Source of the DNA: a virus | Lineage: Duplodnaviria; Caudoviricetes | Virus record (IMG/VR): IMGVR_UViG_3300005326_000040 | Coordinates: 1-64,000 of that record | Length of the DNA: 64,000 nt | Direction: 5' to 3' (one strand) | Part shown: positions 5,496-64,000 of the stretch, piece after piece | Numbering within the stretch: the first letter of the stretch is position 1 | Layout: the number at the start of each line of letters is the position of its first letter | Made by a program: the position numbers and the translations under genes | The notes under the pieces: model-generated | Database searches by the model: none | What the model was told of the DNA's origin: nothing | The model's input: the letters and a program-made list of their open reading frames with translations, nothing else

Positions 5496-6699
5496 TAATT
5501 CGTTTGATATTATCATAGCGGGCGGTGGAATTGCTGGAGCCTTTGCTGCTTATCGCTTATCGAAACTTACTAGAAACATAAAGATTGGTCTTATTGAATT
5601 TGGTCGCCCGCCAGGGAAAAGACGAAAGCAACTAGAAGGTTGGTTCGGTTGTTTCCCAACAAGTAATTCTCGCCTTTATCAAAATGATATCACTAAGGTC
5701 GAAGCTTTAACGGGTCATCACTGTGACAAAGTTTTTGACAAGCTAAACCATATTCTTGCAGATTTTGGCTCAACCAAGTTTATATCAAGCAAGAAGCCTT
5801 CTGTTACCGCAAAACAAAGAGCAAGTAAATTAGGGTATACATACAATCAGTATGATTATATTCAATGGAAACCAGAGAACGTTCATTTGCTTTCACGATT
5901 CATAGCAGAAGAAATTGAGAAAAACCCAAGCATCCAGTTGATTTTTGATAACGGTATTAATGCTGTAACGAAGAAGAACAAGAAGTTTGTTCTTGAAACG
6001 GAGCAAGGAATTTTCGAAAGTGATAAGTTGATTCTTGCTCTTGGGAGAAGTGGCTGGAGAATCGCTAAGAGTATTTTTGATGGATTCTCTATGATTGAAA
6101 ATGATGATTATGCGTATTATGGGTTTACAGCTGAGATTCCTTCTGTTTACATGAAGGAATGGAGCGGTAGTCATTGTTCGTTTGAGCGAGACAATATGAC
6201 GATTGGGCCGCTATGCTGGAAAGGTACTGTTATTCCTGAGGACCATGTTGACCTTGTTATTTCTTCGTGGCGTTCAAATGAAGAGAGATGGAATTCTGAA
6301 AAAGTATCGTTTTCTGTTACGCGAAAAGATGAGTTCCCAGCAGAAGGTTCTAAACAAACAGAACGATTGGGTAAACTTGCGTTTGTTCTCTCGGACTCTC
6401 GCGTAGGTAGAATTCGTGCATCAGAGTATTTCAATAACAATTTAGAGATATCTTTGGTTCCGGAGTATCACTGGTTGAAGGATGAGATTGAAGCTCTCAA
6501 TGAACTTTTCCCAAGTTATCTTTCTAAGGGCGCAATGTATTTTCCGCATATTGAGCTTGTGCCGCCTGTTATCAATATAAAGTCGGATTTGTCAACCAAA
6601 ATCGACGGGTTATATGTTGCTGGCGAATCCGCTGGAGTGAAGGGCATTCTGAGCGCATGCTTGACCGGATATATAGTCGGTGAATCTGTTGTAAAGTAA
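5485..6699 (+). CDS. FAD-dependent oxidoreductase (COG2509-like, divergent)
   Basis: N-terminal IIIAGGGIAG dinucleotide motif, LILALGRSG, C-terminal TKIDGLYVAGESAG. Confidence 0.8.
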   Translation: MATNNSFDIIIAGGGIAGAFAAYRLSKLTRNIKIGLIEFGRPPGKRRKQLEGWFGCFPTSNSRLYQNDITKVEALTGHHCDKVFDKLNHILADFGSTKFISSKKPSVTAKQRASKLGYTYNQYDYIQWKPENVHLLSRFIAEEIEKNPSIQLIFDNGINAVTKKNKKFVLETEQGIFESDKLILALGRSGWRIAKSIFDGFSMIENDDYAYYGFTAEIPSVYMKEWSGSHCSFERDNMTIGPLCWKGTVIPEDHVDLVISSWRSNEERWNSEKVSFSVTRKDEFPAEGSKQTERLGKLAFVLSDSRVGRIRASEYFNNNLEISLVPEYHWLKDEIEALNELFPSYLSKGAMYFPHIELVPPVINIKSDLSTKIDGLYVAGESAGVKGILSACLTGYIVGESVVK

Positions 6700-6705
6700 G
6701 GTCAT

Positions 6706-7041
6706 ATGAAAGAATTAAACAGAGCTTCCGTGGAATCAGATCTTAATAGACATCACGTTCAGTATGAAGACCCGCTATGGAAAGAGGATGAGGCGGAAAC
6801 TAAAAATCGAGTGATTAGTGTTAAACTTTGTACCACTAAAAATTTAGATTACAAGCTTACTGAATGGAAATTTTTTGACAACGGGAAATTAGCATTTATA
6901 CTAACAGCACAATATATGAGTAAGAAACAGCTAAATTTTCTTCATACTGTTGATGGTGTGCAGTTCTTGATGAAAGTGTATAAGGCGGGAGCTACAAACG
7001 CCAGCAAAATTCGCACTGAACTCAAAAAAACATTATGCTAA
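6706..7041 (+). CDS. Hypothetical protein
   Basis: ORF track. Confidence 0.6.
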   Translation: MKELNRASVESDLNRHHVQYEDPLWKEDEAETKNRVISVKLCTTKNLDYKLTEWKFFDNGKLAFILTAQYMSKKQLNFLHTVDGVQFLMKVYKAGATNASKIRTELKKTLC

Positions 7042-7346
7042 TTAACGTAAATGAGAAAACTCATAAGATTATAGTTTCTGATGGCATTTTCAAGCAAAGC
7101 TTTAACACAGTAGAAACACAAGTTATAGCTGCGCTTGCAGCATATATTCACCGCTTTGGGGAAAATAATCCTGTTCCTTTTGTGCTTGACACTGTTAAGT
7201 CGAGCGAACACTACATTCGCTTTAATACCGGATATAGGATTTTAATTCCAGCAGGCTTGTCAGCAGAACTAGCCAACAGGATGGTTCTCTTCAATTCGCG
7301 GTGGGATTATCCTATGCCCGAAGACATTGAAGCTGACGAAGAATAA
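7035..7346 (+). CDS. Hypothetical protein
   Basis: ORF track. Confidence 0.55.
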   Translation: MLINVNEKTHKIIVSDGIFKQSFNTVETQVIAALAAYIHRFGENNPVPFVLDTVKSSEHYIRFNTGYRILIPAGLSAELANRMVLFNSRWDYPMPEDIEADEE

Positions 7347-8028
7347 GGAACTACTCAACATGTCAACTCGATATATTCCTCTCTTGGATGTAGGAAATGT
7401 GTTGGTTACTGTTAATATGTCTGCCGTATATCATGAGGCTCTGCGGTTGGGTTTGGCGAAGAGCGAATACGAAGCCAAGAAATTGCTTGATTATTGCGAC
7501 AGTTTCTTGAACCTTGGCATGATGGATATGGAGACATTTCTTTTCGGGCATTTTAATTCTGTTCATTTGTCGGGAGGTGAACTCGTTTCATCTTTGCGGG
7601 CCTTTAAAGATTTTTGGGTCGATGGTAATTGGATTTCTCTTAATACAGAAATTCTAGATTATCTATTAGATAACGTTTATCAGTTTGATGATATTGCCCT
7701 CGTGAGTAATATTGGCTTTGATCATTATAAAGTAATTCACGAAATGCATCCATTTTTCAAACATGAACATGTTTCTTGGTTTGCTAGTTGTGAAGTGGGA
7801 GCCCAGAAACCAAGCAAAATATATTATGATTTGCTGATGAGAGGCGCGGATGAAGAAGCAACTTATCTTTTCGTAGATGATCGTGAGATAAATCTCAAAG
7901 CCGCACAAATTAGATTGTGCCATAAATTTGATGTTCAAACATTTCAATTCAATTCCGCCACAGATGATCATCGTCTTTTGATAGATGAATTAGAGGATAT
8001 GATCACCGAACAAAAAAGCATCTTTTAG
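7327..8028 (+). CDS. HAD-superfamily phosphatase
   Basis: Motif I LLDVGNVL, motif II VSN, motif III QKPS, motif IV LFVDDREINL. Confidence 0.85.
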   Translation: MKLTKNKELLNMSTRYIPLLDVGNVLVTVNMSAVYHEALRLGLAKSEYEAKKLLDYCDSFLNLGMMDMETFLFGHFNSVHLSGGELVSSLRAFKDFWVDGNWISLNTEILDYLLDNVYQFDDIALVSNIGFDHYKVIHEMHPFFKHEHVSWFASCEVGAQKPSKIYYDLLMRGADEEATYLFVDDREINLKAAQIRLCHKFDVQTFQFNSATDDHRLLIDELEDMITEQKSIF

Positions 8029-13707: not shown

Positions 13708-14062
13708 AGTAGTAAATGTTACCTTTACAAAAGAATTTGACGCAACTTTTCTTACTGATTTGCCGGAAGATAAAATTGAAGATTTGTTAGATGCTTATCA
13801 GTATGAAATCGATCAAGAATGGGACGCGCCTGAATGGCAATTTTCAGCGTATGATCGCTTGAAACAAATCAAGAAAGCCAAAGACCTCCCAACAGAACTT
13901 TCAAAGTTTGATATGGTTATTGTTGAGAATGAAATTCTGTCTGCGCAGGAAGGGACACAAGAAGTAGAAGACATCAAAAAGCAAGCTCAACAAGACCTTG
14001 ATGACCTTCGGCTTAAGATGGGTCTAGCTGAAGTTCAATGTAAGCTGCCTGGGGTTGAGTGA
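13700..14062 (+). CDS. Hypothetical protein
   Basis: ORF track; RBS AGGAG. Confidence 0.6.
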   Translation: MYRVVNVTFTKEFDATFLTDLPEDKIEDLLDAYQYEIDQEWDAPEWQFSAYDRLKQIKKAKDLPTELSKFDMVIVENEILSAQEGTQEVEDIKKQAQQDLDDLRLKMGLAEVQCKLPGVE

Positions 14063-14089
14063 TATCATTGATATGATGTTTGCCGCTCA

Positions 14090-14425
14090 TTGGAGATTAA
14101 AATGAAACCACAGCCCCCTCAACGTGAAAAATATCGCGTATACAAATGCGCCTCTGGTCGTTGTGATAATTTTGAAGAGCTTCTTTTTGAAATAGAAGAT
14201 CTTAAACGTAATGGGATTGATTTGAATAAAGTTTCATTTGAACTTTCTTATGGAACTCAAACTTCTTTAGCGGGGTCAGCCCCACAATATGTTATAGTAA
14301 ATTCTGATGTTGACGAAGCAGAAACGGACTTTCGTTATGAAGCAGCCGTAAAACGTTATCAGTCTCAATTGGAAGAGTATCGAAAGAAGCTTGCAGAAGA
14401 ATATGAGAAAGAGTTTGGAAAATGA
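14090..14425 (+). CDS. Hypothetical protein
   Basis: ORF track. Confidence 0.6.
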   Translation: MEIKMKPQPPQREKYRVYKCASGRCDNFEELLFEIEDLKRNGIDLNKVSFELSYGTQTSLAGSAPQYVIVNSDVDEAETDFRYEAAVKRYQSQLEEYRKKLAEEYEKEFGK

Positions 14426-14814
14426 GTAGCTTTGATAAAGCTAAAGCTATTATGCGAGACGTTGAGCTTGATGATCTAATGGAACAGGGCGCTCACGATC
14501 AATATTACTATGGGCGTCAGATTTTCAAAGGTAATGGTGTTGAGATTCACGCATGCCCAGCAGATATGAATTATGTTATTGAGACAAATGCTTTTATCAT
14601 CTACTGGTATGTGGATGGTCATCTAAGTGTTTATATGAAAACGGTTGATGGAAAAGTGGTTTCACAATCTTCAGCTGAAACATTTAAGCCTTTCGATTTA
14701 TCTTTTTTTGCTGAGATTGAACAAAACAAAATTGGTTGTAAAATATTAAGTGCAAACGAAGAAAACATCAATGGTTTGGTTAGAGGAATCCTTTGTGAAT
14801 TAACTATAGATTAG
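14422..14814 (+). CDS. Hypothetical protein
   Basis: ORF track; ATGA overlap. Confidence 0.6.
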   Translation: MSSFDKAKAIMRDVELDDLMEQGAHDQYYYGRQIFKGNGVEIHACPADMNYVIETNAFIIYWYVDGHLSVYMKTVDGKVVSQSSAETFKPFDLSFFAEIEQNKIGCKILSANEENINGLVRGILCELTID

Positions 14815-14816
14815 GA

Positions 14817-16607
14817 ATGAATATGAGCGAAATTACTCGTATTGAATACTTTGTTTATCTTTGTGGGAACCCTAAATATTCAGCGTATACTTCTTCTCAA
14901 TGGGAGAATTTTGCTGTTTGGGAACCATATAGTAAACTAGAAGACTTCTTAGGTTCAACTTTATTTGACGAAAAATGCGATTTGGCTCGTCCGGTCTATA
15001 TGGACTCGGATAAATATTGTCCGATATGTACTAGATGTCATACGGTTCGCCCAATTGATCGAGTTCATAGCTGGGGTGTTACTATGTGTGACATTTGTTT
15101 CACTGGTAGTTTTTCAGATAATGTTCGTGATTTTACAGTTATGGCGGCTTACAACGGTAGACCTATCTGTGTAATTTACAGAAATTATGATAGGGATAAT
15201 TATACCAGTAAACAGATGGAAGAAGAAACAAAGAAACTTCTTTTGCTTTTATCTGAAAATCATCCTCCATTAACGGAAGAACAGTTTGATGTAGAGTTCC
15301 CGATGGATGATGAAAGTGAATGGATTAGACTTGGAACATCGAAGGATGGCTGGCGTCTTCAAAAAATAACTGAACAGCTTAATAAGGATTATCTAAAACT
15401 TAAGACTGTTTTTACTGATATTTTCTTTTTGGATTATTATGGCGATGACGGTGCCCCTGTATTGTATGTTTTACTAGATGTATGGAAGACTCTTTCTCAA
15501 GAAGAAAGAGAGATTATGAGGTCTTTTGTGACTGCTGAAATTGAGAAAAACAATATAATGACAACCTTACCAAAAACAATTGGAGATGACGTTTTTGATC
15601 CTAAATTGCTTAGTCGTGCAAGAGGCTGTCTGTTGGGACAATTCTGCGGTGATGCTCTGGGTAGTTTGGTAGAATTCCATAAAGAAGAAACTGTCAAGCG
15701 ATTATATCCAGATGGTGTTAAAGAGATGCATGACGGTGGGCGCTGGAATTCTGTTGCGGGCCAATTAACAGATGACTCTGAGATGGCTTTGATGTTAATT
15801 GCGTCAATTCTTAAAGACGGAACATATAACGCGCAAACGGCTTTAAAGCATTATATCTACTGGGTTAATACTAGTCCAACTGATGTTGGAAGAACTACAG
15901 CTAAAGCGCTTGTAGCTGCACGCGCGGCTTTTGGTGCAGAGCTTCGTTGGGAAGATATTCTTGAATATATCGATCAACATGGTGGAACTCCAGAGAGCCA
16001 GGCAAACGGTGCGTTGATGAGAGTTTCTCCGCTTGCTATTTGGGGTGTCAATCAAGACCCAAACAGGCTTGCAGAATACGCCATTGCTGATGCACGCCTG
16101 ACCCATATCAACCGAGTGTGCCATGAGTGCAATGGAGCATATATTGTTGCTCTTCATCACGCTATTAATCATGGGCATATTGGTGCTTATGAAGCTGCTG
16201 TCAAATGGTTGCAAGCGAATGGTAAAGAACCGGAAGTAATGAATAGGCTTGTGCTGGCGGCGAAGGAACCACCAAAGAATTTCTTTAGTTACATGGGTTG
16301 GGTGCTAACAGCATTTCAAAATGCTTTTTATCATTTGGTGAATACGGATACAGCAGAAAAGGCGATTGTAGAAACTGTCGGGCACGGAGGAGACAGCGAT
16401 ACTAACGGGTGTATTGTTGGCGCTCTGATTGGTGCTGCGAGAGGCGTAGAAACTCTCAACATGCAATGGATTGATAAGGTTCTAAATTGTCGTCCTGAAT
16501 CCGGTAATCCTCTCGTGAAAAAGCCAAGACCGAAAGAGTTTTGGCCTGTAGACGCTTTGATTCTAGTGGATAAGCTTTTGGCTATTGGAATGTGGAGCAG
16601 TCAGTAG
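14817..16607 (+). CDS. ADP-ribosylglycohydrolase (ARH/DraG family) with ~250-aa N-terminal extension containing CxxC pairs
   Basis: GCLLGQFCGDALG, GQLTDDSEMAL, DVGRTT, SQANGALMRVSP, ARLTH, GGDSDTNGCIVGALIGA; N-terminal CPICTRC...CDIC. Confidence 0.9.
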   Translation: MNMSEITRIEYFVYLCGNPKYSAYTSSQWENFAVWEPYSKLEDFLGSTLFDEKCDLARPVYMDSDKYCPICTRCHTVRPIDRVHSWGVTMCDICFTGSFSDNVRDFTVMAAYNGRPICVIYRNYDRDNYTSKQMEEETKKLLLLLSENHPPLTEEQFDVEFPMDDESEWIRLGTSKDGWRLQKITEQLNKDYLKLKTVFTDIFFLDYYGDDGAPVLYVLLDVWKTLSQEEREIMRSFVTAEIEKNNIMTTLPKTIGDDVFDPKLLSRARGCLLGQFCGDALGSLVEFHKEETVKRLYPDGVKEMHDGGRWNSVAGQLTDDSEMALMLIASILKDGTYNAQTALKHYIYWVNTSPTDVGRTTAKALVAARAAFGAELRWEDILEYIDQHGGTPESQANGALMRVSPLAIWGVNQDPNRLAEYAIADARLTHINRVCHECNGAYIVALHHAINHGHIGAYEAAVKWLQANGKEPEVMNRLVLAAKEPPKNFFSYMGWVLTAFQNAFYHLVNTDTAEKAIVETVGHGGDSDTNGCIVGALIGAARGVETLNMQWIDKVLNCRPESGNPLVKKPRPKEFWPVDALILVDKLLAIGMWSSQ

Positions 16608-25922: not shown

Positions 25923-26141
25923 ATGTCTCACTATTGTTTTGATGGCTCTAAACATGAAGCAGACTGTTCATGTGATTGTCCTTCTTGTAGTTCTGTCATT
26001 GATGATACTAAAAGGCGCGAATTTAATGAAAAATTATCCAAACGAATCAAAGAAGAATCCATGAAACTTTGGGGAGACAAATTCTTTATTGAAAACTTGA
26101 TAAAAGAGTTTAATAAGGCGGGGAAGAAGCCGGGCGCATAA
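25923..26141 (+). CDS. Small Cys-rich hypothetical protein
   Basis: ORF track; RBS GGAGG. Confidence 0.6.
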   Translation: MSHYCFDGSKHEADCSCDCPSCSSVIDDTKRREFNEKLSKRIKEESMKLWGDKFFIENLIKEFNKAGKKPGA

Positions 26142-26356
26142 TGAAAACACTAAAAAGAAAAGAAAGCTGGGAACTATACAGAAGCAACACTGATTCCACC
26201 CCTCTCCCAAGAGTTGTAATGCCAAAAAATTACAAATACTCATGCGATGAATGTGAATTTAATACTGAGTATGAATGTGGATGTCGCGGCTTAGCAAATA
26301 TATGTAATGATTTCTATTTTAATCCAACAAAGTGGAAGTGGGAAGAGGAAACATGA
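26141..26356 (+). CDS. Small Cys-rich hypothetical protein
   Basis: ORF track; TAATG overlap. Confidence 0.55.
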   Translation: MKTLKRKESWELYRSNTDSTPLPRVVMPKNYKYSCDECEFNTEYECGCRGLANICNDFYFNPTKWKWEEET

Positions 26357-26787
26357 ACGACAAACTATTTAAGATTCTAAGTTGGGTTTTCCCGCCACCT
26401 AAAACGAGGCGAGGTTGGGTTATTATTGGGAATGAGGTGCGTAATGTTCTGGCTTCAAAACGCGCACCAGAAGATAGACAATGTAATCCTCTCCCCGAAG
26501 ACGGTCCTTTTTGGTACTGTCGTGAATTGAGTTGTGTTGTTAAGGAAAAAGCAGCGATAGGAGTCCATTACGCTGAGATTTTCGACCGCAAGTCAGATGC
26601 TATCAAGGTGCTTATTGAAAATGTGCACGATACGATAAGTGAGATAGAGCGCGGAATTCAAGACGATTATCATTACTTGAACTGTCTGAAGAAACATCTT
26701 GAGTATTGTGTTGAACATAAAGATGATGACGATGATAAGGATTTGCTCATCGTGAATGATGAGTTACCGTTGAGCGCATTTGAATAA
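26332..26787 (+). CDS. Hypothetical protein
   Basis: ORF track. Confidence 0.55.
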   Translation: MEVGRGNMNDKLFKILSWVFPPPKTRRGWVIIGNEVRNVLASKRAPEDRQCNPLPEDGPFWYCRELSCVVKEKAAIGVHYAEIFDRKSDAIKVLIENVHDTISEIERGIQDDYHYLNCLKKHLEYCVEHKDDDDDKDLLIVNDELPLSAFE

Positions 26788-26811
26788 GTTGAGCCCAAAG
26801 GAAAGATTGAA

Positions 26812-27138
26812 ATGATCACTTTCTATTTCGCAATTACAAACTTTATGCTGGAAAAGAATGGTTTGAGCTATTCTGTAGAAAACAAAAACTATGGGCTGTA
26901 TGATATCTATTGGAATACGATTTGTTCCTCTACGTTAGCTAGCACACCTGGGAAGGTGGTTGATGCTGCCCAAGATTACAAAGAGCCTATCGCAATTTGC
27001 AAAGCTGTCGTTGAAAATGATATTGCTATCGATTTTATGCAGGCTGGGCTAAGCGAAGATAAGGACCCTAATAAACACTTTTTAGCTACTGTCGTGGAAA
27101 TGATGTGGCTAACTAAAAGTAAAGTGTCGGGCGCATAG
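26812..27138 (+). CDS. Hypothetical protein
   Basis: ORF track. Confidence 0.55.
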   Translation: MITFYFAITNFMLEKNGLSYSVENKNYGLYDIYWNTICSSTLASTPGKVVDAAQDYKEPIAICKAVVENDIAIDFMQAGLSEDKDPNKHFLATVVEMMWLTKSKVSGA

Positions 27139-27194
27139 GCTTGCATTTGGTTAGAGGGTGGACCTATTGAAGCCCTCTTGAAAAGGAAAACATC

Positions 27195-27395
27195 ATGATT
27201 CCAAAGACACAAAAAGGACACGATCAGGAATGGGGAATTCTTACGGAAGAGGCGATGAATATTATTCGGGATCCTAAGAGGCGCTTTACTGAAGAGGGTC
27301 GCGCAGCGATGCAATTGTATGACATTTGCATTAAGAGGGAATTAAATAACAATTTGGTGAGAATTTATAGCGAACTTCAAAAAAAACTTCATTGA
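27195..27395 (+). CDS. Hypothetical protein
   Basis: ORF track; RBS AAGGA. Confidence 0.55.
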   Translation: MIPKTQKGHDQEWGILTEEAMNIIRDPKRRFTEEGRAAMQLYDICIKRELNNNLVRIYSELQKKLH

Positions 27396-27465
27396 TGTAG
27401 CAATAGTCTGATATATACTAACCAACAAAGGCAATATGACTGCTCTATTTACACAGGAGGTTATC

Positions 27466-27570
27466 ATGGCGACAAAACAGACCGCGCAGGTTTGTTTAGC
27501 CGTCGTGGATAATTCCAAGCGTAATGGCGTCTATTGCTGCTGTCCAAGTCGTCTCCCCGCAAGGGTCTAA
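27466..27570 (+). CDS. Candidate 34-aa leader peptide (MATKQTAQVCLAVVDNSKRNGVYCCCPSRLPARV) within the structured tRNA-cluster leader
   Basis: Strong RBS CAGGAGG 5 nt before ATG; overlaps hairpins at 27475-27497 and 27548-27599. Confidence 0.4.
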   Translation: MATKQTAQVCLAVVDNSKRNGVYCCCPSRLPARV

Positions 27571-27598
27571 AATAAAACGTATTTACGTAAGTAGACGA

Positions 27599-27674
27599 CA
27601 GGACATAGCTCAATTGGTAGAGCACTCCGTTTGGGGCGGAGAGGTTGGGGGATCATCACCCTTTGTCCTGACCA
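27599..27674 (+). tRNA. tRNA-Pro (anticodon TGG) with CCA; atypical T-loop ATCATCA
   Basis: Acceptor CAGGACA/TGTCCTG + A + CCA; anticodon stem CTCCG/CGGAG with loop TTTGGGG. Confidence 0.85.
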
Positions 27675-27691
27675 ATAGAGAAAAGCAATAG

Positions 27692-27729
27692 GCGCCATAA
27701 GCAAACAAGCTTGTGGCGTTTTTGTTTTT
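27692..27729 (+). terminator. Terminator-like hairpin plus U-tract between tRNA-Pro and tRNA-Asp
   Basis: GCGCCATAAGC-AAACAA-GCTTGTGGCGT followed by TTTTGTTTTT. Confidence 0.5.
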
Positions 27730-27804
27730 GGGACCGTAGCACAATGATAGTGCAGCAGATTGTCGATCTGTATTATGCGAGTTTGAGCCTCGTCGGTCCC
27801 GCCA
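27730..27804 (+). tRNA. tRNA-Asp (anticodon GTC) with CCA; T-loop TTTGAGC
   Basis: Acceptor GGGACCG/CGGTCCC + G + CCA; anticodon stem GCAGA/TCTGT with loop TTGTCGA. Confidence 0.9.
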
Positions 27805-27962
27805 TTGAAAATTTGGGTTGGTAGCTCAGTGGTAGAGCAGCTGATTGTAGAAGGCGTTGAACAGAATAGTGTTGCAACTCGGTTCAAAGCTGGAGCCTTC
27901 GCGGTTAATCAGCCTCGCGCAAGTTCGATCCTTGCCCTTCCCTCCAATTGAAAATTTGGGTT
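27804..27962 (+). repeat. 16-nt direct repeat ATTGAAAATTTGGGTT at 27804-27819 and 27947-27962 (inter-tRNA spacer plus tRNA start)
   Basis: Exact match read from the sequence. Confidence 0.85.
27815..27946 (+). tRNA. tRNA-like gene with 57-nt insertion in the anticodon loop (mature form Tyr-GTA or Asn-GTT)
   Basis: GGGTTGG-TA-GCTC-AGTGGTA-GAGC-A-GCTGA-TTGTA[GAAGGC...GCCTTC]GCGGTTAA-TCAGC-CTCGC-GCAAG-TTCGATC-CTTGC-CCTTCCC-T-CCA; two U-U mismatches in the acceptor stem. Confidence 0.75.
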
Positions 27963-28032
27963 CGTAGCTCAATTGGCTCAGAGCGCTCGGCTCTTAACCG
28001 AGAGGTTGCGGAATCGTTCTCCGCCGGACTCA
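27958..28032 (+). tRNA. tRNA-Lys (anticodon CTT), no CCA; atypical T-loop ATCGTTC
   Basis: Acceptor GGGTTCG/CGGACTC + A; anticodon stem CTCGG/CCGAG with loop CTCTTAA. Confidence 0.85.
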
Positions 28033-28045
28033 CTAAGAAAAACTT

Positions 28046-28120
28046 GGGGCTGAAGCTCAAAGGAATGAGCAGTTGGCATTAAGCCAACATAGGTTGCGAG
28101 TTCGAATCTCGTCGGCTCCG
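28046..28120 (+). tRNA. tRNA-like gene with TTA anticodon (ochre suppressor-like or degenerate)
   Basis: Acceptor GGGGCTG/CGGCTCC + G; D stem GCTC/GAGC; anticodon stem GTTGG/CCAAC with loop CATTAAG; T arm GCGAG-TTCGAAT-CTCGT. Confidence 0.7.
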
Positions 28121-28149
28121 CAAATATCTAGCATGTTATATATTCCCGC

Positions 28150-29007
28150 ATGCAAACAGAATCCGACAGCCAATCATTAAAAGAAGCATTTGAAAAGTTA
28201 AAAGGTTACGCTGAAGTTATTAATGAAAATGATCTCAAAAAGCAAGATCTATTTCAAACTTTATCTCAGAATATTTCTGAAACCAATAAATTTTACGAGC
28301 AAGCTTCTAATTCTATTCGTCGCAGAGTAGATCATGATAGTTTTTTACGAAAAGCGCTGGTTGTTGACCCTTTGCCTCCATTGGCGAAAGCTGAGTATAT
28401 GGCAGAGGAATATAAACGAAAGATAAGTGTTCCGACATTGTATCAACGTTTTTGTGTAAAAAACACAAATGAAGACGCTAGTTTTTATAATAGAGCAGAT
28501 AGATTGGTGCAAAAGGCGATACAGAAAATAATAAAATCTGAGACGCAAATTTTACTCTACTTATTTGCAGTTTGTACAAATAATCGACTCATCATAGATT
28601 GTCGTAATGAATCGCATTCGATCAAAGTTGCTATACAAAAAATGAGAGAAGCTATCTATAATGCTGGTTTGCAATTTGATTTACCTAAAGATCACTCTAT
28701 TGCAATAAGTCATTTTTTCATAAATTTTCTTGATTTTGCCGAGCTAACTAAAGATGTAGCAACAAACAAAGAAAAGCAAGAGTATATGGATTACAACAGG
28801 ATTTGTAATTGTTCTTTTAACGCTAGTCAACTTGTTCCACGGGGAAGAATCTATGGTATTCCTGACCCAGAATATTTAGGAGTTATGCCTATTGTTCAAG
28901 ATATAACTGTTACTAAAATAGATTCAGAATTTATGTTCTTAGAGGGGGCTTATGAACATGGATATGGTATTATTATACCTGAATTTGTTTTTGCAGCCGA
29001 TATTTGA
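28150..29007 (+). CDS. Divergent major capsid protein (HK97-fold) paralogue
   Basis: SNSIRRRVDHDSFLRKALVVDPLP and LVPRGRIYGIPDPEYLGVMPIVQDI match, from memory, conserved N- and C-terminal blocks of a huge-phage MCP family (ANPIRRNLDYQG.ARKALVVDPLP ... ADPEYVGVMPIRQDI). Confidence 0.65.
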   Translation: MQTESDSQSLKEAFEKLKGYAEVINENDLKKQDLFQTLSQNISETNKFYEQASNSIRRRVDHDSFLRKALVVDPLPPLAKAEYMAEEYKRKISVPTLYQRFCVKNTNEDASFYNRADRLVQKAIQKIIKSETQILLYLFAVCTNNRLIIDCRNESHSIKVAIQKMREAIYNAGLQFDLPKDHSIAISHFFINFLDFAELTKDVATNKEKQEYMDYNRICNCSFNASQLVPRGRIYGIPDPEYLGVMPIVQDITVTKIDSEFMFLEGAYEHGYGIIIPEFVFAADI

Positions 29008-29038
29008 TAGAGCTTTTTCTGTGAGATATATTCTTCCT

Positions 29039-29233
29039 ATGAAGACCTGGAAGCAAGCAAGTATAGAAGCTGAACTTACAGCCATCAGCAAGTTAGACCC
29101 TAATATTTTCGATGAGGATCCTTTACCTGACCACCCTTATCGAGATAACCCCAATACAGTTAGTGTTGTTGAGATACGTACGAACGTGACTTGTTTTGAT
29201 AAGCTTAAGACATTCTTGCGGTCGATTTTTTAA
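29039..29233 (+). CDS. Small hypothetical protein (MKTWKQASIE...)
   Basis: ORF track 28952-29233; ATG 29039 follows GATATATT. Confidence 0.5.
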   Translation: MKTWKQASIEAELTAISKLDPNIFDEDPLPDHPYRDNPNTVSVVEIRTNVTCFDKLKTFLRSIF

Positions 29234-29262
29234 GATAGCAATACATTTGCATATTTTTTGTT

Positions 29263-29730
29263 ATGACCATAGACAAAAGCGCGACATTATTTGGCAGCCA
29301 AGCATTTAAATATAGAAAACTAGTTGTTCAATGGGATCCAACTGAAACCGGCGAAACCCTTGCTTGGCAAAGAGCGGAAGCTTGGAAAGCTGACGGATTT
29401 AAAGAAGGTGACGTTAGCGCTAATTTTGCCAAAAAGGAAAACCTTATAAGAAAAGCTTATGATGAATACTATCCTGAAGGCAAGGAATCTTTTGAAGAGG
29501 CTTATAAGAATACACTTGAGAAGGCAATGAAGGAAGTATCTGTAGACCATTTTTCTACATTGCGTACAAGCAAAAACAGACCCGGTGAACCGTTCGAGAA
29601 AGTAACTCTTGAGCAAGGGGAACCGCTAGCTCCTATTGAGGAACTTGAGACATCATCTAGACCGTATCCTGGTCTTAGTAGAGCCTGCACCATTTTTGAA
29701 AAATTGGTGAAAGCTGCAACTGCTAAGTAG
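29263..29730 (+). CDS. Hypothetical protein
   Basis: ORF track. Confidence 0.6.
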   Translation: MTIDKSATLFGSQAFKYRKLVVQWDPTETGETLAWQRAEAWKADGFKEGDVSANFAKKENLIRKAYDEYYPEGKESFEEAYKNTLEKAMKEVSVDHFSTLRTSKNRPGEPFEKVTLEQGEPLAPIEELETSSRPYPGLSRACTIFEKLVKAATAK

Positions 29731-29908
29731 AACCTAAGTCCGGCATATCAAATTCATTATTATGATCGAAGCCGGGGCAATTACAATTGTCTTGCCAGCA
29801 TGGAACGTAGTTACTTACATTGTGTTGAGCACATGCATGACCACAGTGTGAGCATTCTTCTTGACAGTCGTCAAACCAATTTCCATGTTCGCATTTGCCA
29901 TCTTTCAT
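29723..29908 (-). CDS. Small Cys/His-rich protein
   Basis: ORF track; eight Cys; GATATATAA upstream on the minus strand. Confidence 0.55.
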   Translation of the reverse strand: MKDGKCEHGNWFDDCQEECSHCGHACAQHNVSNYVPCWQDNCNCPGFDHNNEFDMPDLGST

Positions 29909-29975
29909 CTTATATCACTTTACATCCCATTACATAATCTGGCGCGATAATCTATAGGCGAGTTATATATCTAGT

Positions 29976-30293
29976 ATGGCCACACGACTAAATCAAAACA
30001 TTATCGATGATCTTCGTTGTATGAGAGGGTTGGAAATAACTGAGGAAGAGCAAGCTGGTTTTTAGAAGGAACCTAGAAAGACTTGGCCTCAAAGAATAGA
30101 AAGCGCTGTGATTGATCAATGCGAAACAGAGTTTTATGAAACGATGTATGATCAAGATGGGCACCCGGTAAATGTACTTAAGCAGTATATTTCGAAAAAC
30201 AGTAAATCAGGTGATTTTACTACGTACGATACAAGTCATGGTCACTGTGGTTTATGTGGTAGTTTAAGTTGTAATGGACAGTGTTTTAGGTGA
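29976..30293 (+). pseudogene. Small gene interrupted by in-frame TAG at 30063-30065 (pseudogene, recoding site or sequence error)
   Basis: The frame from ATG 29976 stops at TTT-TAG and then continues in frame into the ORF-track segment 30108-30293 ending HGHCGLCGSLSCNGQCFR. Confidence 0.4.
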
Positions 30294-30354
30294 TCTCTAA
30301 ATAATTTTGGAACAACTCTAAACTTTTGTTGTCTTAATATTCCAGGAGGATATT

Positions 30355-31686
30355 ATGGACAACAAGTATGTTATGATAAAGTCAGCACCCGCACCATTAT
30401 CAGAAGAGGTTGAAACCAATAAAATTGAAACTGAGCTAACCATTCTATGGGGCGAAAGTGTTCTATTTTCAGGGACAGTCAACAAACCATTTTCTATTGG
30501 TGAAGAAAACTGTAATTTCACTGTGCCTGGAATTAATGTCTTGGTGAAAGATGGCGTTCTTTTTGGACCTCAAGCCATTTCTCTTACAGAAGAATTCTCT
30601 ACTGTTACTTTTGGTGACATTACAATCAAGGCTAGGCTTGTACGGGCTGGAAGAGTTTATCCTACGTCAATACTGTCTGGTTGGTCACATACAGCGTACG
30701 TAGGATTATCTGGGACGATACACGTAGCCTTACTGTTTCTATTTGCTTTCTTTATGCCGCCGCTAGGCATTAGTGATGCTGAAGCTTCTACAAAAGATCA
30801 GCTTTTCCTAATGCAACAATATCTAAACGCTTCGGCTGAAAGAGAACAAGAAGCAAAAGAAGATGCCGAAACAGCCGAGGACTCAAAAGACAATCAAGAA
30901 GGTGGAACAGGACAAAGAGCGGTTGGGGAAGAAGGAACTATGGGTAATCCTAATTCTCCTGCAAGAAACAATAGGTATAGTATTGCTGGGCCAAAAGACA
31001 ATAAAGACATTCATATTTCTAGAGAGGCGGCTTTGAGAGAAGCATCAAGCTTTGGAATGATTGGTATTTTGAATGTGGGAAGCGGAGGAGACCCCAATGC
31101 TCCCACAGCAATTTGGGGACGAGACGAAGCTCTTGGTGCAGATTCTTTTAGCTACCGAGGGAATATGTGGGGAACTGATATTGGAGAATCTTTTGGTTCA
31201 AATGGATTGGGTTTATCAGGAATAGGAGAAAGTGGTGGCGGTAAAGGAGAAGGCATTGGTGTTGGTTCCGTAGGAACAATTGGTCATGGCGCAGGGCTAG
31301 GAGATAAACAAGGCTTTGGAAATGGTCATGGTTTGTTGAAAAGCGGACATAAAGTAAAGGATATTAAGGTTCGCCTTGGAACAACAACGGTTACAGGAAG
31401 ACTTCCACCAGAAGTTGTGCAACGCATTGTTCGTCAAAATTATGGCCGATTCCGCGTGTGCTACGAGTCAGGCTTACGTTCTAATCCAAGCCTTCAAGGA
31501 AGAGTTGCTGTTCGATTTGTAATTGGAAGAGATGGCGGAGTATCAAACGTGGCTAATGGTGGCTCAGACTTGCCGGACCAAAATGTAACCCAATGTGTTA
31601 TTAGAGCTTTTTATGGATTGAGTTTCCCCGAGCCTGAGGGTGGGATCGTTACGGTACTATATCCTATAATTTTTTCACCGAATTGA
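30355..31686 (+). CDS. Myxobacterial AgmX/PglI(GltG)-type TonB-C-terminal domain membrane protein
   Basis: Single TM (GTIHVALLFLFAFFMPPLG), acidic then Gly-rich linker, C-terminal GRLPPEVVQRIVRQNYGRFRVCYESGLRSNPSLQGRVAVRFVIGRDG...CVIRAFYGLSFPEPEGGIVTVLYPIIFSP; RBS AGGAGG. Confidence 0.85.
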   Translation: MDNKYVMIKSAPAPLSEEVETNKIETELTILWGESVLFSGTVNKPFSIGEENCNFTVPGINVLVKDGVLFGPQAISLTEEFSTVTFGDITIKARLVRAGRVYPTSILSGWSHTAYVGLSGTIHVALLFLFAFFMPPLGISDAEASTKDQLFLMQQYLNASAEREQEAKEDAETAEDSKDNQEGGTGQRAVGEEGTMGNPNSPARNNRYSIAGPKDNKDIHISREAALREASSFGMIGILNVGSGGDPNAPTAIWGRDEALGADSFSYRGNMWGTDIGESFGSNGLGLSGIGESGGGKGEGIGVGSVGTIGHGAGLGDKQGFGNGHGLLKSGHKVKDIKVRLGTTTVTGRLPPEVVQRIVRQNYGRFRVCYESGLRSNPSLQGRVAVRFVIGRDGGVSNVANGGSDLPDQNVTQCVIRAFYGLSFPEPEGGIVTVLYPIIFSPN

Positions 31687-31711
31687 TTTATCATTTTTGC
31701 CATATAATAGT

Positions 31712-33289
31712 ATGGCTAAACCAAAAGGTATATTTACCTCTAAATATTCACAATTTAAATATGGCGTCGGTCTTGGTGTTGAACAATTCGTCGTCTCTGA
31801 TTTAGAGTCATTGGTAAGTCTAAATGATAAGGGATTTGCGCCAGATTGGGTCATTCGAGTAACAACTCTTCGTGCAAGTTTTAGATTGGTTTTAGGCAGT
31901 CAGCTTACTGCTGATGGAATTACCGTTATCAATTCAAATTCAGGAAGAGGACAATGGATTCGAGATTTGACTGCGGCTGATACTTATTGGCATAAACAGC
32001 CAGCGTGGTATATTGATGCGGTAAATGGAAATGATGAGAATGCTGGAATAACTCAATCTAGCCCTTTGAAAACTTTTGCTGAGTGGGCAAGAAGAATAGC
32101 AAATGTAGTTAAGACGGCAACGACTGTTAATGTTTTGTCTTCGATTCCTGAGAGCGATCCGTTTCCAAGTTCTCTTTGTTTAGAAAAAAATCTTACAGTT
32201 GCAGGAACTTTAATTGAAACATCTTCTGGAACTTTTACAAGTGTTACTCCGCTTTCAACCGCAACGAATGAAGAGATGAAGGTTGCTAAATCTTCAGGAA
32301 ATTGGACGACTGATGTTGATAAATTGTTATATGATGTAAATGTTGATGCTTGGGGATTTGTTACTAAAGACGTAGGATCTAATAGCGAAGCTTATGTTAC
32401 TCAATTTGCTCCATTAAGTGTTAGTTCTATGGGGAACGCATTAGCTACATTAGCTAACGGCCATGTATATAAACTGTATAACATTCAACACTCTATTTAT
32501 ATGGATAAAACGGTGTCGTGGTACGGCTCAGGAGATTTTATATTTGCTGATTTAATAGTTTATGGTGGAGAATATGTTCCAACGTATAAATATACGCGAT
32601 TTATGGATTGTTCGTGTTCTGTTAATTTTATACGTTGCGCTTTTGAAAGGTCCGCGCCATCAGTTGGAGTTTTCTTTACTATAACAGATTCAAATATTGG
32701 TTTTCATTGCTGTAGAATTGGATCTGTTGAATCGGGCGGAGTAACAGTTCAAACATCAATATGTGGCGGATATATGAATCTAGACGTGGTGTTTTTATCA
32801 GGAACCACAGAAGAAAATTCTTCATTAAATGCCTATGGTTTTGGTGGAGGAGTTAGTATTGCGTATGGAGGACTTACAGCAAGATATTCTTCGATGCGTT
32901 GGTGGGATATGCCTGTTATAGATTTTTACGGTCCGATATGTATGTTCAATTCACCATATCATGGGTTAGAAATTGGAAACTCTGCTGTGCGAATACAGGG
33001 TGGTTACGGTAATTCAGCAGGCAAATTCATAGGAAAAGATATTGCACAATATGGTTTGTATGTGTGGCGAAGCAGAATTACTGGCGCTTCTGCAACTAAT
33101 TGCTATGTGACAGGCACAACTGGCGACATATTGATTGGTGGGAAAACACAACTTATGCCAGAAATTGATGCCTCGGCTGGAGCAGTTCTTCCGGCAGCAG
33201 CACCTTGTACTACTTGGGCACAATTTGCAGCCGCACCGTTCAGCGGCAAACTAATTGATTATACTAGCGCAACCTATTTTGGTCCATAA
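31712..33289 (+). CDS. Tail fibre/spike-like beta-rich protein, paralogue A
   Basis: WYIDAVNGNDENAG...PLKTFAEWARR head motif, Gly/Ser/Thr-rich body; N- and C-termini homologous to 33337-34863. ATG 31712 is in frame with the track start 31697. Confidence 0.6.
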   Translation: MAKPKGIFTSKYSQFKYGVGLGVEQFVVSDLESLVSLNDKGFAPDWVIRVTTLRASFRLVLGSQLTADGITVINSNSGRGQWIRDLTAADTYWHKQPAWYIDAVNGNDENAGITQSSPLKTFAEWARRIANVVKTATTVNVLSSIPESDPFPSSLCLEKNLTVAGTLIETSSGTFTSVTPLSTATNEEMKVAKSSGNWTTDVDKLLYDVNVDAWGFVTKDVGSNSEAYVTQFAPLSVSSMGNALATLANGHVYKLYNIQHSIYMDKTVSWYGSGDFIFADLIVYGGEYVPTYKYTRFMDCSCSVNFIRCAFERSAPSVGVFFTITDSNIGFHCCRIGSVESGGVTVQTSICGGYMNLDVVFLSGTTEENSSLNAYGFGGGVSIAYGGLTARYSSMRWWDMPVIDFYGPICMFNSPYHGLEIGNSAVRIQGGYGNSAGKFIGKDIAQYGLYVWRSRITGASATNCYVTGTTGDILIGGKTQLMPEIDASAGAVLPAAAPCTTWAQFAAAPFSGKLIDYTSATYFGP

Positions 33290-33459
33290 TCGGTTGATAA
33301 TGGATTAAGTTTTCGAGAGCCTAGCATATAGGTTCATCAAGAAGATATTGCCGGGCCAGCGTAAGCGCCATTCGCGTGGTTGAAGGCTTTGCCGTTGAAA
33401 GGCGCCGCAGCGATCTGCGCGAACGTTGTGCAGGGTGCAAGAGCCGGAAGAACTGCTCC
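33179..33459. repeat. Imperfect inverted repeat between the 3' ends of the two fibre genes; exact 17-nt core GGAGCAGTTCTTCCGGC (33179-33195 / 33443-33459)
   Basis: Reverse complement of 33443-33459 equals 33179-33195. Confidence 0.8.
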
Positions 33460-34863
33460 GGCAGACGCTGTAAGGTCGGGCAACAAATTCGCATAGCCGC
33501 CGACTGAAAGCTGCGTCGTCCCGTCAACAGTAATCTGCGCAAAGTTGCTACAGGAAAATTGCGCTCTGGCACCGACAGTCAAGCAAGTGCCTGTGTTGCC
33601 ACTGCCGAAAATTGGCGCGTCTCCTGCGAACCTGCCACCGTCACGGATCCGAATAGGTGAGGAACCGTCAAAGGCTCCCATCGAATTGATAACCTTCGAT
33701 CGGCTATTCACAGACACGTAGCCGCCAACGACAAGGTAGTCCCAAAGAGTCGATTCACCCCCACCATCAAAAACAGCGTAGCCAAGACGCTGTAGACAGC
33801 ACCGAGCAACCAACGATCCGCTGTTGAAGAACCACGACCATGGCTTTGCGGAATCTGCCCCGAAGAAACACATGGCGAAGTAGTAAGGACCAACCGGTTG
33901 CCAGTAGCCAAACTCAACACGGATGAAGACGGCCATTACACTTCCGTCAACGCTTCCCTTGATCGACTTGTACCCACCAGCTTCTTCGAGAAAGCGAAGG
34001 TCCCTGAACACAACGTTGTCGGTAGCATCTGATCTGTTGTCAGAAATGATGCCTATACCGTTATAGGCATAGACGGTCGGAACGTTGTAGACCGTGAATG
34101 TATTCCCGACTGCTGGAATAGGGTACGGAGTTGTGAATGTGATCGTGTTGTCGCCTGTGACGTTCGCAGGCTGCGTGACCAGTGCAACACCACCGCCAAG
34201 GTTCTTCGCAATGCGAACCCAGGCGTTGCACTCGGTAATGTACACACTGCGACCAACGTGTGGTGCCCAGTCGATTGCCGCTGTGATCTGTGCTCCAGTG
34301 TTCGCCGCGTAGTTGGGGGCAGTGTAGTATGTCAGCATGCCAGTAGCGACAGCTGTTCTAGTTCCAAGAATGCGAAGCTTGCCTGCATTTGTCCAGCCAA
34401 CGCGTCGCGGGATCGGGTCGGTTGTAGGAAGCGTGCTGAGTATCTGCACTTCCATCGTGATCCCATCCGCAACTCCGCCCGTTCTTCGGTACCATTCTGC
34501 TAGAGTCTTAAGCGCAGCAGAAGTGGTATTTCCAACATTTTCATCATTACCATTGATAGGATCAATATACCATTCTGTTTGTTTTGACCACACAAAATCT
34601 ATATGAGCTTCTCTAACCCATTGCTTTGTTCTTGACTTAGCTGTAACAACAGTGATGCCGTCCGCTGTTAATGTTGTGTCTGCGATGAGCCTAAAGTTTG
34701 CGCGCAGTGTTTGAACACGAACAACCCAGTCAGCCGGGAAAGCTTTATCATCAATTTCTGCCAAATTAGTTAAATTGGTTGTGGTAAACTCTTTAACAGA
34801 GAGACCAACGCCATAGCTATACTGGGAGTATTTGGAAGTGTATATGCCTTTAGGACGACTCAT
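33337..34863 (-). CDS. Tail fibre/spike-like beta-rich protein, paralogue B
   Basis: WYIDPINGNDENVG...ALKTLAEWYRR; shares N-terminal ~130 aa and C-terminal ASAGAVLPA.APCTT.AQ.AAAPF with paralogue A. Confidence 0.6.
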   Translation of the reverse strand: MSRPKGIYTSKYSQYSYGVGLSVKEFTTTNLTNLAEIDDKAFPADWVVRVQTLRANFRLIADTTLTADGITVVTAKSRTKQWVREAHIDFVWSKQTEWYIDPINGNDENVGNTTSAALKTLAEWYRRTGGVADGITMEVQILSTLPTTDPIPRRVGWTNAGKLRILGTRTAVATGMLTYYTAPNYAANTGAQITAAIDWAPHVGRSVYITECNAWVRIAKNLGGGVALVTQPANVTGDNTITFTTPYPIPAVGNTFTVYNVPTVYAYNGIGIISDNRSDATDNVVFRDLRFLEEAGGYKSIKGSVDGSVMAVFIRVEFGYWQPVGPYYFAMCFFGADSAKPWSWFFNSGSLVARCCLQRLGYAVFDGGGESTLWDYLVVGGYVSVNSRSKVINSMGAFDGSSPIRIRDGGRFAGDAPIFGSGNTGTCLTVGARAQFSCSNFAQITVDGTTQLSVGGYANLLPDLTASAGAVLPALAPCTTFAQIAAAPFNGKAFNHANGAYAGPAISS

Positions 34864-34943
34864 AATTTAAATGTAAGTTTATTGCTTTATTAATTTGTCG
34901 GGCTTTCCTTAAGTTCTAATAATCTTGAACCAAGAGGATTAAA

Positions 34944-63845: not shown

Positions 63846-64000
63846 CTCAAGAATATGTCCTATTATTGCTGGTGAGATAAGAATGTGTGAGTTCCTAGAT
63901 CTCTATGATCTGTCAGATCCCAGTTTTCCTAATTCCTTTGTAGCTGGAACTCACAGTGCGGAGATTGTAAACGCAGCCAGCAGAACATCCCTTACATTCG

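Follow-up and report, generated by a model that had tools for sequence, protein, structure and literature searches.

A GltG-like transducer without the N-terminal FHA domain encoded by a jumbo phage with a predicted Polyangiaceae host

The 64,000-nucleotide stretch of viral DNA analysed here (“the window”) constitutes the first 64 kb of a 338,055-bp IMG/VR virus record (IMGVR_UViG_3300005326_000040; Caudoviricetes; CheckV completeness 97%) and contains, at positions 30355–31686 (+), a gene for a relative of GltG (PglI, MXAN_4867), the bitopic, TonB/TolA-like force transducer that connects the proton motor of the Agl-Glt gliding machine of Myxococcus xanthus with the outer envelope. Judged by alignment and phylogeny, the encoded protein is an FHA-less variant of GltG and not GltG itself; it is assigned to the GltG family by descent and would work like a transducer of the TonB/TolA/GltG type. 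The gene is a true, long-ameliorated phage-resident gene with at least 13 AT-biased orthologues. Concerning its function, we give about an even chance to the proposal that the phage protein is a minimised host-derived GltG, i.e., a competitor that occupies the host motors and the periplasmic Glt complexes uncoupled from the focal-adhesion platform.

Architecture of the phage protein

A parts list of GltG is provided by AlphaFold modelling of the M. xanthus machine, in which six binding sites connect the N-terminal FHA domain to the cytoplasmic scaffold GltI, the AglR5QS motor is bound by the central FHA domain together with the membrane helix, residues 428–543 wrap GltD, and the C-terminal domain contacts both GltD and GltF (PMC11761067). 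In two-hybrid assays, AglR interacts with GltG (PMC3169522) and also with the GltG paralogue NfsG (PMC3858216); thus, one motor accepts alternative transducers.

The phage protein is colinear with GltG and its Polyangiaceae orthologues from the central FHA-fold domain through a Ser-x3-His helix, acidic helices and a Gly-rich segment to the C-terminal domain. Structural statements refer to single-chain AlphaFold2 models, the full-length model being built on a 58-sequence alignment and the N-terminal 141 residues being folded separately (mean pLDDT, the predicted score in the local distance difference test, 80). The features of the gene are as follows, with the supporting evidence in brackets:

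30344..30349 (+): Shine-Dalgarno sequence AGGAGG, 5 nt before the ATG of the GltG-like gene (direct sequence reading)
30355..31686 (+): whole coding sequence of the phage GltG-like, FHA-less TonB/TolA-type transducer, 443 amino acids plus stop, ATG start (open reading frame list; NF033760, 155 bits; NF033768, 85 bits; homology to Polyangiaceae GltG)
30418..30651 (+): predicted cytoplasmic minimal FHA-fold domain, residues 22–99, corresponding to the “central FHA” of GltG and ~50 residues shorter (AlphaFold2 pLDDT 81–89; VIA-align; alignment gaps)
30670..30753 (+): predicted single transmembrane helix, residues ~106–133, with Tyr115, Ser119-x3-His123, Ala131 and Phe133, followed by Pro135 and Pro136 (AlphaFold2 pLDDT ~90; conserved columns)
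30763..31080 (+): predicted periplasmic helical/acidic segment, residues 137–242, with the QQYLNASAERE block (AlphaFold2 helices 147–175 and 219–242; 64–74% identity among phage copies)
31081..31392 (+): Gly-rich segment, residues 243–346, corresponding to the GltG stretch modelled to wrap GltD (pLDDT ~30; 70–86% identity among phage copies)
31399..31683 (+): AgmX/PglI C-terminal domain with the fold of the TonB C-terminal domain, residues 349–443 (NF033768; pLDDT 85–92; Foldseek; invariant columns)

Among the NCBIfam profiles, the AgmX/PglI C-terminal domain (NF033768) is recognised at residues 352–441 with 85.2 bits (cut-off 40; E 2.4e-24; 88.9 bits in a six-frame search of the genome), and the GltG equivalog NF033760 is matched with 155 bits against a cut-off of 650, residues 122–442 corresponding to profile positions 342–647 of 650. 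TIGR01352 stayed below threshold (14.1 bits; cut-off 27.1), the protein is not reported by the Pfam profile TonB_C (PF03544), and its searches with the Pfam and PHROGs profiles gave no match. In the full-length model, a β-sandwich (residues 24–97) is followed by the membrane helix (~106–133), two periplasmic helices (147–175 and 219–242), a low-confidence Gly-rich stretch (244–346) and a confident C-terminal domain (349–443). The membrane helix, the acidic and then Gly-rich periplasmic stretch, and the AgmX/PglI domain described in the initial annotation of this gene are, hence, all seen in the AlphaFold2 and NCBIfam results, and the strong ribosome binding site noted there is the AGGAGG at 30344–30349.

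The VIA-align matches of the N-terminal domain are nearly all FHA domains, the best one being FHA-1 of Rv1747 (Z 8.0, root-mean-square deviation (rmsd) 2.1 Å, 70 aligned residues); for the top FHA matches, the Z values are middling (6–8), with rmsd values of 2.1–2.8 Å. The assignment of the FHA fold is based on this uniform list of matches and on the published “central FHA” of GltG. Binding of phosphothreonine by this domain is unlikely, because Gly-Glu is present at residues 49–50, in the cellular homologues as well, where canonical FHA domains carry Gly-Arg.

In the helix region, Tyr115, Ser119, Ala131, Phe133 and Pro135 are invariant in the 58 sequences, at least 90% of which also keep His123; the Ser-x3-His face is invariant across all phage copies, and its His recurs in remoter GltG homologues. 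This face resembles the Ser/His helix face of TonB and TolA. The topology would be N-in/C-out, which fits the Arg residues on the N-side and the acidic residues on the C-side of the helix. Further along the chain, the Gly-rich segment contains many invariant Gly, Leu and Ile columns and is among the best conserved parts of the protein despite its low AlphaFold2 confidence. For the C-terminal domain, the best Foldseek matches in the PDB are the C-terminal domains of TonB, FusB and HasB (probability ~1.0; template modelling score by target 0.5–0.69; rmsd ~2 Å over ~70 residues), and PDB entries of phage g3p bound to TolA are also among its structure matches. Cys369 and Cys414 of this domain are invariant across the 58 aligned phage and cellular sequences and may form a periplasmic disulfide. 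As in TonB and TolA, the periplasmic force transducers coupled to ExbBD and TolQR, a bitopic N-in/C-out protein is predicted, whose helix bears a Ser/His face and whose long periplasmic linker leads to a small α/β C-terminal domain; however, the linker is Gly-rich instead of Pro-rich, and a cytoplasmic FHA-fold domain is added.

Relative to GltG, parts are missing, which had escaped the initial annotation. The phage protein aligns from residue 188 of the Sorangium protein onward, and in ten of ten aligned phage-type proteins the N-terminal FHA domain and the subsequent Pro/Ala-rich linker with repeated NPF motifs (together ~185 residues) are absent; furthermore, deletions totalling ~50 residues relative to the cellular proteins are present in the central cytoplasmic domain. 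Pfam finds no FHA domain (PF00498) in the phage protein, the central domain being missed by it in the cellular proteins, too. No FHA gene is found nearby, and the only FHA match in the 338-kb genome is a sub-threshold one at 243 kb. Profile searches of the same genome gave no match to MotA/ExbB, ExbD, GltC or GltE and no second AgmX/PglI domain; given that neither stator (agl) nor GltC/GltE genes were found, the protein could act only through host parts. The neighbours of the gene are phage genes and not a glt cluster. With GltG the protein shares the central FHA-fold domain, the Ser-x3-His helix and a phylogenetic position inside the GltG clade; it is not filed as GltG itself because of its low equivalog score, the absent N-terminal FHA domain and the absent glt-cluster context.

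Descent from Polyangiaceae and residency in jumbo phages

The search of protein collections returned 2,275 matches. The cellular relatives are ~680–715 residues long, possess the N-terminal FHA domain, and are 52–56% identical over 99% of the phage protein, rising to 64–69% from the helix onward; those that are named belong to Sorangium, Polyangium or Polyangiaceae. These Polyangiaceae proteins are classed as GltG orthologues of the family, because they align end to end to NF033760 (280–320 bits, also under the cut-off of 650) and because the copy of Sorangium So ce26 (P0066) lies in a glt cluster, where it is preceded by gltC-, gltD-, gltE- and gltF-like genes and followed by a giant tetratricopeptide repeat gene. 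With one genome per species, 448 relatives were obtained. Among the best 80 of these, 64 are labelled Sorangium (15), Polyangium (14) or Polyangiaceae/Polyangiales/Polyangia metagenome-assembled genomes (MAGs; 35), the labels of another 14 are broader myxobacterial or unresolved proteobacterial ones, and the remaining 2 are short contigs that had been binned to other phyla; the best matches are, hence, not spread over non-myxobacterial TonB proteins. Among 151 genomes sampled from the phylum, a copy of at least 55% identity is present in 11, and the first copies of the others are at ~45% or below. The resemblance of the linker to Polyangiaceae proteins, suggested in the initial annotation, is borne out by QQYLNASAERE and GGDPNAPTA.WGRD, which are conserved blocks common to these proteins.

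A maximum-likelihood tree with 48 rows unites the ten phage proteins in a single clade (support 100/100), which lies inside a clade (96/84) of GltG proteins from uncultured Polyangiaceae MAGs, a groundwater MAG included, and this in turn inside a Polyangiaceae group (100/100). The comparison with GltG/AgmX paralogues, which had been proposed as a check, thus places the phage clade within Polyangiaceae GltG. Its immediate sisters (95/96) are L062 and L090, two GC-rich paralogues of cellular origin that likewise have no N-terminal FHA domain and stem from the same MAG lineages. Approximately unbiased (AU) tests rejected one shared origin for every FHA-less form, whether of cells or of phages (p 0.00016); a donor bearing the FHA domain was not (p 0.19), and the test does not separate the two donors. 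Upon wider sampling, a second phage-type clade (P0136, P0161 and P0240) appeared in the same Polyangiaceae group, with a tentative position within it; the data, therefore, suggest one or two captures from the host.

The sisters belong to a group of FHA-less orphan GltG paralogues of 450–550 residues (L062, L090, L091, L092, L094, L095 and L113, from the Polyangiaceae genomes G001–G003 and others), a large, fast-evolving subfamily that is also present in Sorangium and makes up many of the 50%-identity clusters found. All seven orphans examined are without the N-terminal FHA domain; in six of them, a short peptide bearing NPF is found at the start. The two orphan loci examined are outside glt clusters. 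Members such as L062 (groundwater MAG G002), L090 (G003) and L091 (Sorangium So ce26) have the same helix, linker and C-terminal domain as the phage protein; they differ in being cellular, GC-rich (57–72%) and longer than the ~440 residues of the phage form. These orphans may be the donor of the phage gene.

Regarding the host, a myxobacterium of the Polyangiaceae or Polyangia type is predicted, on the basis of the tree position of the GltG-like clade and of a second phage gene with the same affinity. This second gene, at 63916–64776 (−), of which 63916–64000 is within the window (locus L120:916–1776), codes for an SH3b-NlpC/P60-like lipoprotein and is an independent pointer to the host, since its best named relatives (50–63% identity) are Polyangiaceae, Myxococcales and Deltaproteobacteria MAGs and Polyangium spumosum. 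The Polyangia-type host of the initial annotation has, thus, been strengthened by the tree and the second gene, and it keeps its character of a prediction.

That the GltG-like gene resides in the phage is evident from three observations: its third-position GC content resembles that of its neighbours, an independent assembly joins it to both flanks, and orthologues are present on phage-like contigs. The gene has a GC content of 43% and a third-position GC content (GC3) of 27.9%, compared with 23–36% GC3 in the neighbouring phage genes, ~39.6% GC in the phage overall and 57–72% GC overall in the loci of the cellular homologues; the low-GC codon style, from which long residence had been proposed early on, is, therefore, that of its neighbours. 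Two Logan contigs, assembled from a groundwater run that is probably the source sample, span 26000–31584 and 31566–34930 with zero differences from the window (depths 7.8 and 6.9), and each links a part of the gene to phage flanks. The two contigs meet inside the part coding for the C-terminal domain, at 31566–31584, with a 19-nt overlap and even depth on both sides; its probable cause is strain variation or a k-mer that related genes in the sample have in common with this one. Read otherwise, the break inside the gene would point to an assembly chimera or a dead passenger gene, an explanation to which we attach next to no probability: both contigs run into phage flanks at even depth, the GC3 is that of the phage, the frame is intact with a ratio of nonsynonymous to synonymous substitution rates (dN/dS) of ~0.16, and orthologues occur in other jumbo-phage contigs. 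A chimeric host contig at 30.3–31.7 kb is, thus, contradicted by the GC3 and by the Logan contigs. Promoter and terminator scans around the gene gave signals at shuffle level, and no RNA dataset is listed as holding the stretch, the single DNA run listed being the groundwater metagenome that is probably the source sample.

Orthologues were sought in related jumbo phages, as had been advised, and were found, among others on contigs of 256 kb and 371 kb. Ten short, AT-biased, FHA-less proteins are among the best 120 matches, and an exhaustive search added four more AT-biased representatives. Their contexts are as follows:

256-kb NCBI contig CACUWD010000001.1 (L002): phage-like
371-kb JGI contig: phage-like
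23-kb contig on which homing endonucleases and a release factor are encoded: phage-like
5.9-kb contig on which a GIY-YIG homing endonuclease gene is accompanied by numerous small open reading frames: phage-like
20-kb contig with an NAD-synthase-like gene: phage-like by its gene table, without DNA
231-kb ENA contig with a terminase: phage-like by its gene table, without DNA

The phage orthologues were found in large protein collections only; a tblastn search against 50,697 deposited phage genomes gave no match for the GltG-like protein, and a pattern scan of IMG/VR gave no relative. A word-based search with the N-terminal 140 residues returned the protein itself and P0002 only, because this domain diverges too fast. 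Close to the GltG-like gene, L004 carries a class-I peptide chain release factor (PCRF/RF-1; 13877–14965) and L118 an eIF-1a/IF1-like gene (2227–2451); in L002, an IS200/IS605-type Y1 transposase and a TnpB/Cas12f-like gene (6272–7739) follow ~2.2 kb downstream of the orthologue.

Possible roles in the infected cell

According to the proposed mechanism, an ancestor of a group of jumbo phages would have captured the gene from an uncultured Polyangiaceae lineage, and it would have been kept since under purifying selection. The protein would insert N-in/C-out into the inner membrane of the infected cell, the Ser-x3-His helix and the small FHA-fold domain would dock on the AglR5QS proton motor of the host, and the Gly-rich segment and the TonB-like C-terminal domain would engage periplasmic host partners (GltD and GltF in the published M. 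xanthus model). Lacking the N-terminal FHA domain and the linker, it would have no tie to GltI and, hence, none to the AglZ/MglA/MreB platform. Since the GltI-binding module is the only one that has been lost, the phage protein would compete with host GltG; motor–transducer units would become uncoupled from the focal-adhesion platform, and the machine would be stalled or re-routed during infection. Candidate benefits for the phage include immobilising the cell, saving proton motive force, and masking a Glt-dependent surface receptor against superinfection. The functions considered in the initial annotation (a jammed or hijacked motor, exclusion, entry) would be compatible with this architecture.

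Comparison of the phage copies indicates purifying selection that is strongest on the periplasmic parts. Between the copies, synonymous divergence is saturated (dS > 1.3) and dN is low. For the L004–L005 pair, dN/dS is ~0.16 overall; by region, it rises from ~0.07 in the Gly-rich segment (dN 0.12 versus dS 1.55) and ~0.09 in the C-terminal domain to ~0.39 in the cytoplasmic domain. Likewise, identity among the phage copies is 60–86% in the periplasmic parts and 17–48% in the cytoplasmic domain. This distribution, in which conservation peaks in the Gly-rich segment and the C-terminal domain and reaches its minimum in the heavily trimmed cytoplasmic domain, would also be expected of a periplasmic decoy for exclusion, i.e., an inner-membrane anchor that ties up GltD, GltF or an outer-membrane partner and thereby hides a Glt-dependent receptor, with no motor needed. 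We regard such a decoy as improbable, given that a mere anchor would have no need of the Ser-x3-His face, which all phage copies keep unchanged, that no receptor is known, and that the gene is unlinked to receptor-binding genes in related phages.

The strong selection on the periplasmic parts suits a working protein as well as a decoy, and a further explanation holds that the protein is a functional transducer—a working spare part, comparable to an auxiliary gene—that keeps a process powered by AglRQS going during infection, whichever process the orphan paralogues may serve, without blocking gliding. Such a process could be the movement or assembly of a surface polymer, as in the Agl-Nfs machine for the spore coat. 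AglRQS serves more than one transducer, namely GltG and NfsG (PMC3858216). NfsG, the sporulation paralogue of M. xanthus and part of a complete cellular Nfs gene set, sets the precedent for several GltG-type proteins sharing this motor or competing for it (PMC3858216), the phage protein being likened to it by description. FHA-less paralogues of 450–550 residues are, moreover, numerous in cells, and the phage clade is sister to L062 and L090 of the same uncultured Polyangiaceae lineages. However, the two cellular orphan loci examined sit outside glt clusters, and six of seven orphans start with the NPF peptide and L062 and L090 keep a full-length central domain, both of which are absent from ten of ten aligned phage proteins. 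The sister relationship may, in addition, result from long-branch attraction, the alternative placement having a p of 0.19, and a single origin of the FHA-less forms is rejected at p 0.00016. On balance, we hold the spare-part explanation, the foremost rival of the competitor proposal, for possible, yet rather unlikely.

Several points weigh against the competitor proposal itself. The cytoplasmic FHA-fold domain, which docks on AglR in the published model, is the fastest-evolving and most trimmed part, and motor docking may, therefore, be weakened, in which case the protein would be a pure periplasmic decoy. Because the phage clade is sister to FHA-less orphan paralogues (95/96), the FHA-less design may be a normal host form with its own job and not a dominant negative made by the phage, and the AU test (p 0.19) cannot decide between the two donors. 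All partner assignments are taken from AlphaFold models of M. xanthus proteins, and the remoter GltG homologues in the phylum are only ~30–40% identical to the phage protein. Whereas homology, architecture, residency in the phage, phylogenetic origin and the pattern of selection are shown by the data, topology, binding partners, competition and any effect on motility are predicted, the structural models being of single chains. Finally, the gap between the GC content of the phage (39.6%) and that of the loci of the proposed host (57–72%) is unusually wide.

Gene neighbourhood and wider context

Downstream of the GltG-like gene, two convergent paralogues, 31697–33289 (+) and 33337–34863 (−), code for tailspike-like proteins that are 34% identical and have ~130 residues at the N-terminal end and ~45 residues at the C-terminal end in common; leads from a protein atlas are viral right-handed β-helix and pectate-lyase-like proteins. 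With a GC3 of 51% versus 24% for its partner, the gene at 33337–34863 forms the only stretch of the window above 50% GC, suggesting that its body was recently imported; a search for its protein in three candidate host genomes gave no match, which carries no weight either way. Upstream, two Cys/His-rich open reading frames of 61 amino acids each resemble zinc-ribbon proteins (29723–29908, −, and 30108–30293, +), the second one stopping 61 nt before the start codon of the GltG-like gene.

The position next to these fibre-like genes had led the initial annotation to hint at a receptor/entry module. However, four related phage-like contigs were compared (L002, L004, L005 and L118), and none of them preserves this adjacency, the GltG-like gene having different neighbours there. 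Of the open reading frames next to the orthologues in L002, L004 and L005, none matches the window; L002 and L004 have only a few matches elsewhere in the 338-kb genome, at other positions, and L005 has none. A conserved receptor/entry module is, thus, rejected on the basis of the different neighbours and the lack of local synteny in these contigs.

Some phages and colicins exploit TonB/TolA systems for entry, and the GltG-like gene adjoins two tailspike-like genes in this phage; the protein might, accordingly, be packaged in the virion or ejected with the DNA to couple the proton motive force of the host to genome entry. We consider such an entry device highly improbable, since the related phages compared do not show the adjacency, a bitopic N-in/C-out protein with a cytoplasmic domain suits insertion from inside the cell, and the PHROGs search gave no sign of a structural protein.

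Phages that carry copies of host envelope components, with which they presumably remodel the envelope of the infected cell, are already known. Huge phages carry host outer-membrane proteins, the preprint reporting them making no mention of gliding, motility, Myxococc-, Polyangi- or FHA (bioRxiv 10.64898/2026.10.24.761521), and a “TolA” auxiliary gene is reported for the Stutzerimonas phage vB_PstS_ZQG1 (PMC10520572). In the literature searched, neither a phage-encoded component of the gliding machine or Glt system nor jumbo phages of Polyangiaceae are reported.

To our knowledge, myxobacterial phages outside Myxococcus are barely known. The present data offer a call of Polyangiaceae hosts, based on sequence, for uncultured phages of 230–370 kb, backed in this phage by the second gene. 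With clearly less than even confidence, we propose that a group of jumbo phages infecting Polyangiaceae carries a viral “clutch”, in which a GltG without its scaffold-binding module commandeers the AglRQS motor and the periplasmic Glt proteins and switches off focal-adhesion gliding in the infected cells or redirects the work of the motor to an end of the phage. If true, a virus that manipulates the gliding or focal-adhesion machine of a bacterium would be reported for the first time, and a phage altering the motility of a social, predatory bacterium would constitute a new kind of host manipulation. The phage protein is a natural truncation, from which the N-terminal FHA domain modelled to bind GltI is gone, whereas the helix, the Gly-rich segment and the C-terminal domain are retained by selection; if the proposal holds, this separation-of-function allele made by nature would help to dissect the coupling of motor, scaffold and periplasm by GltG.

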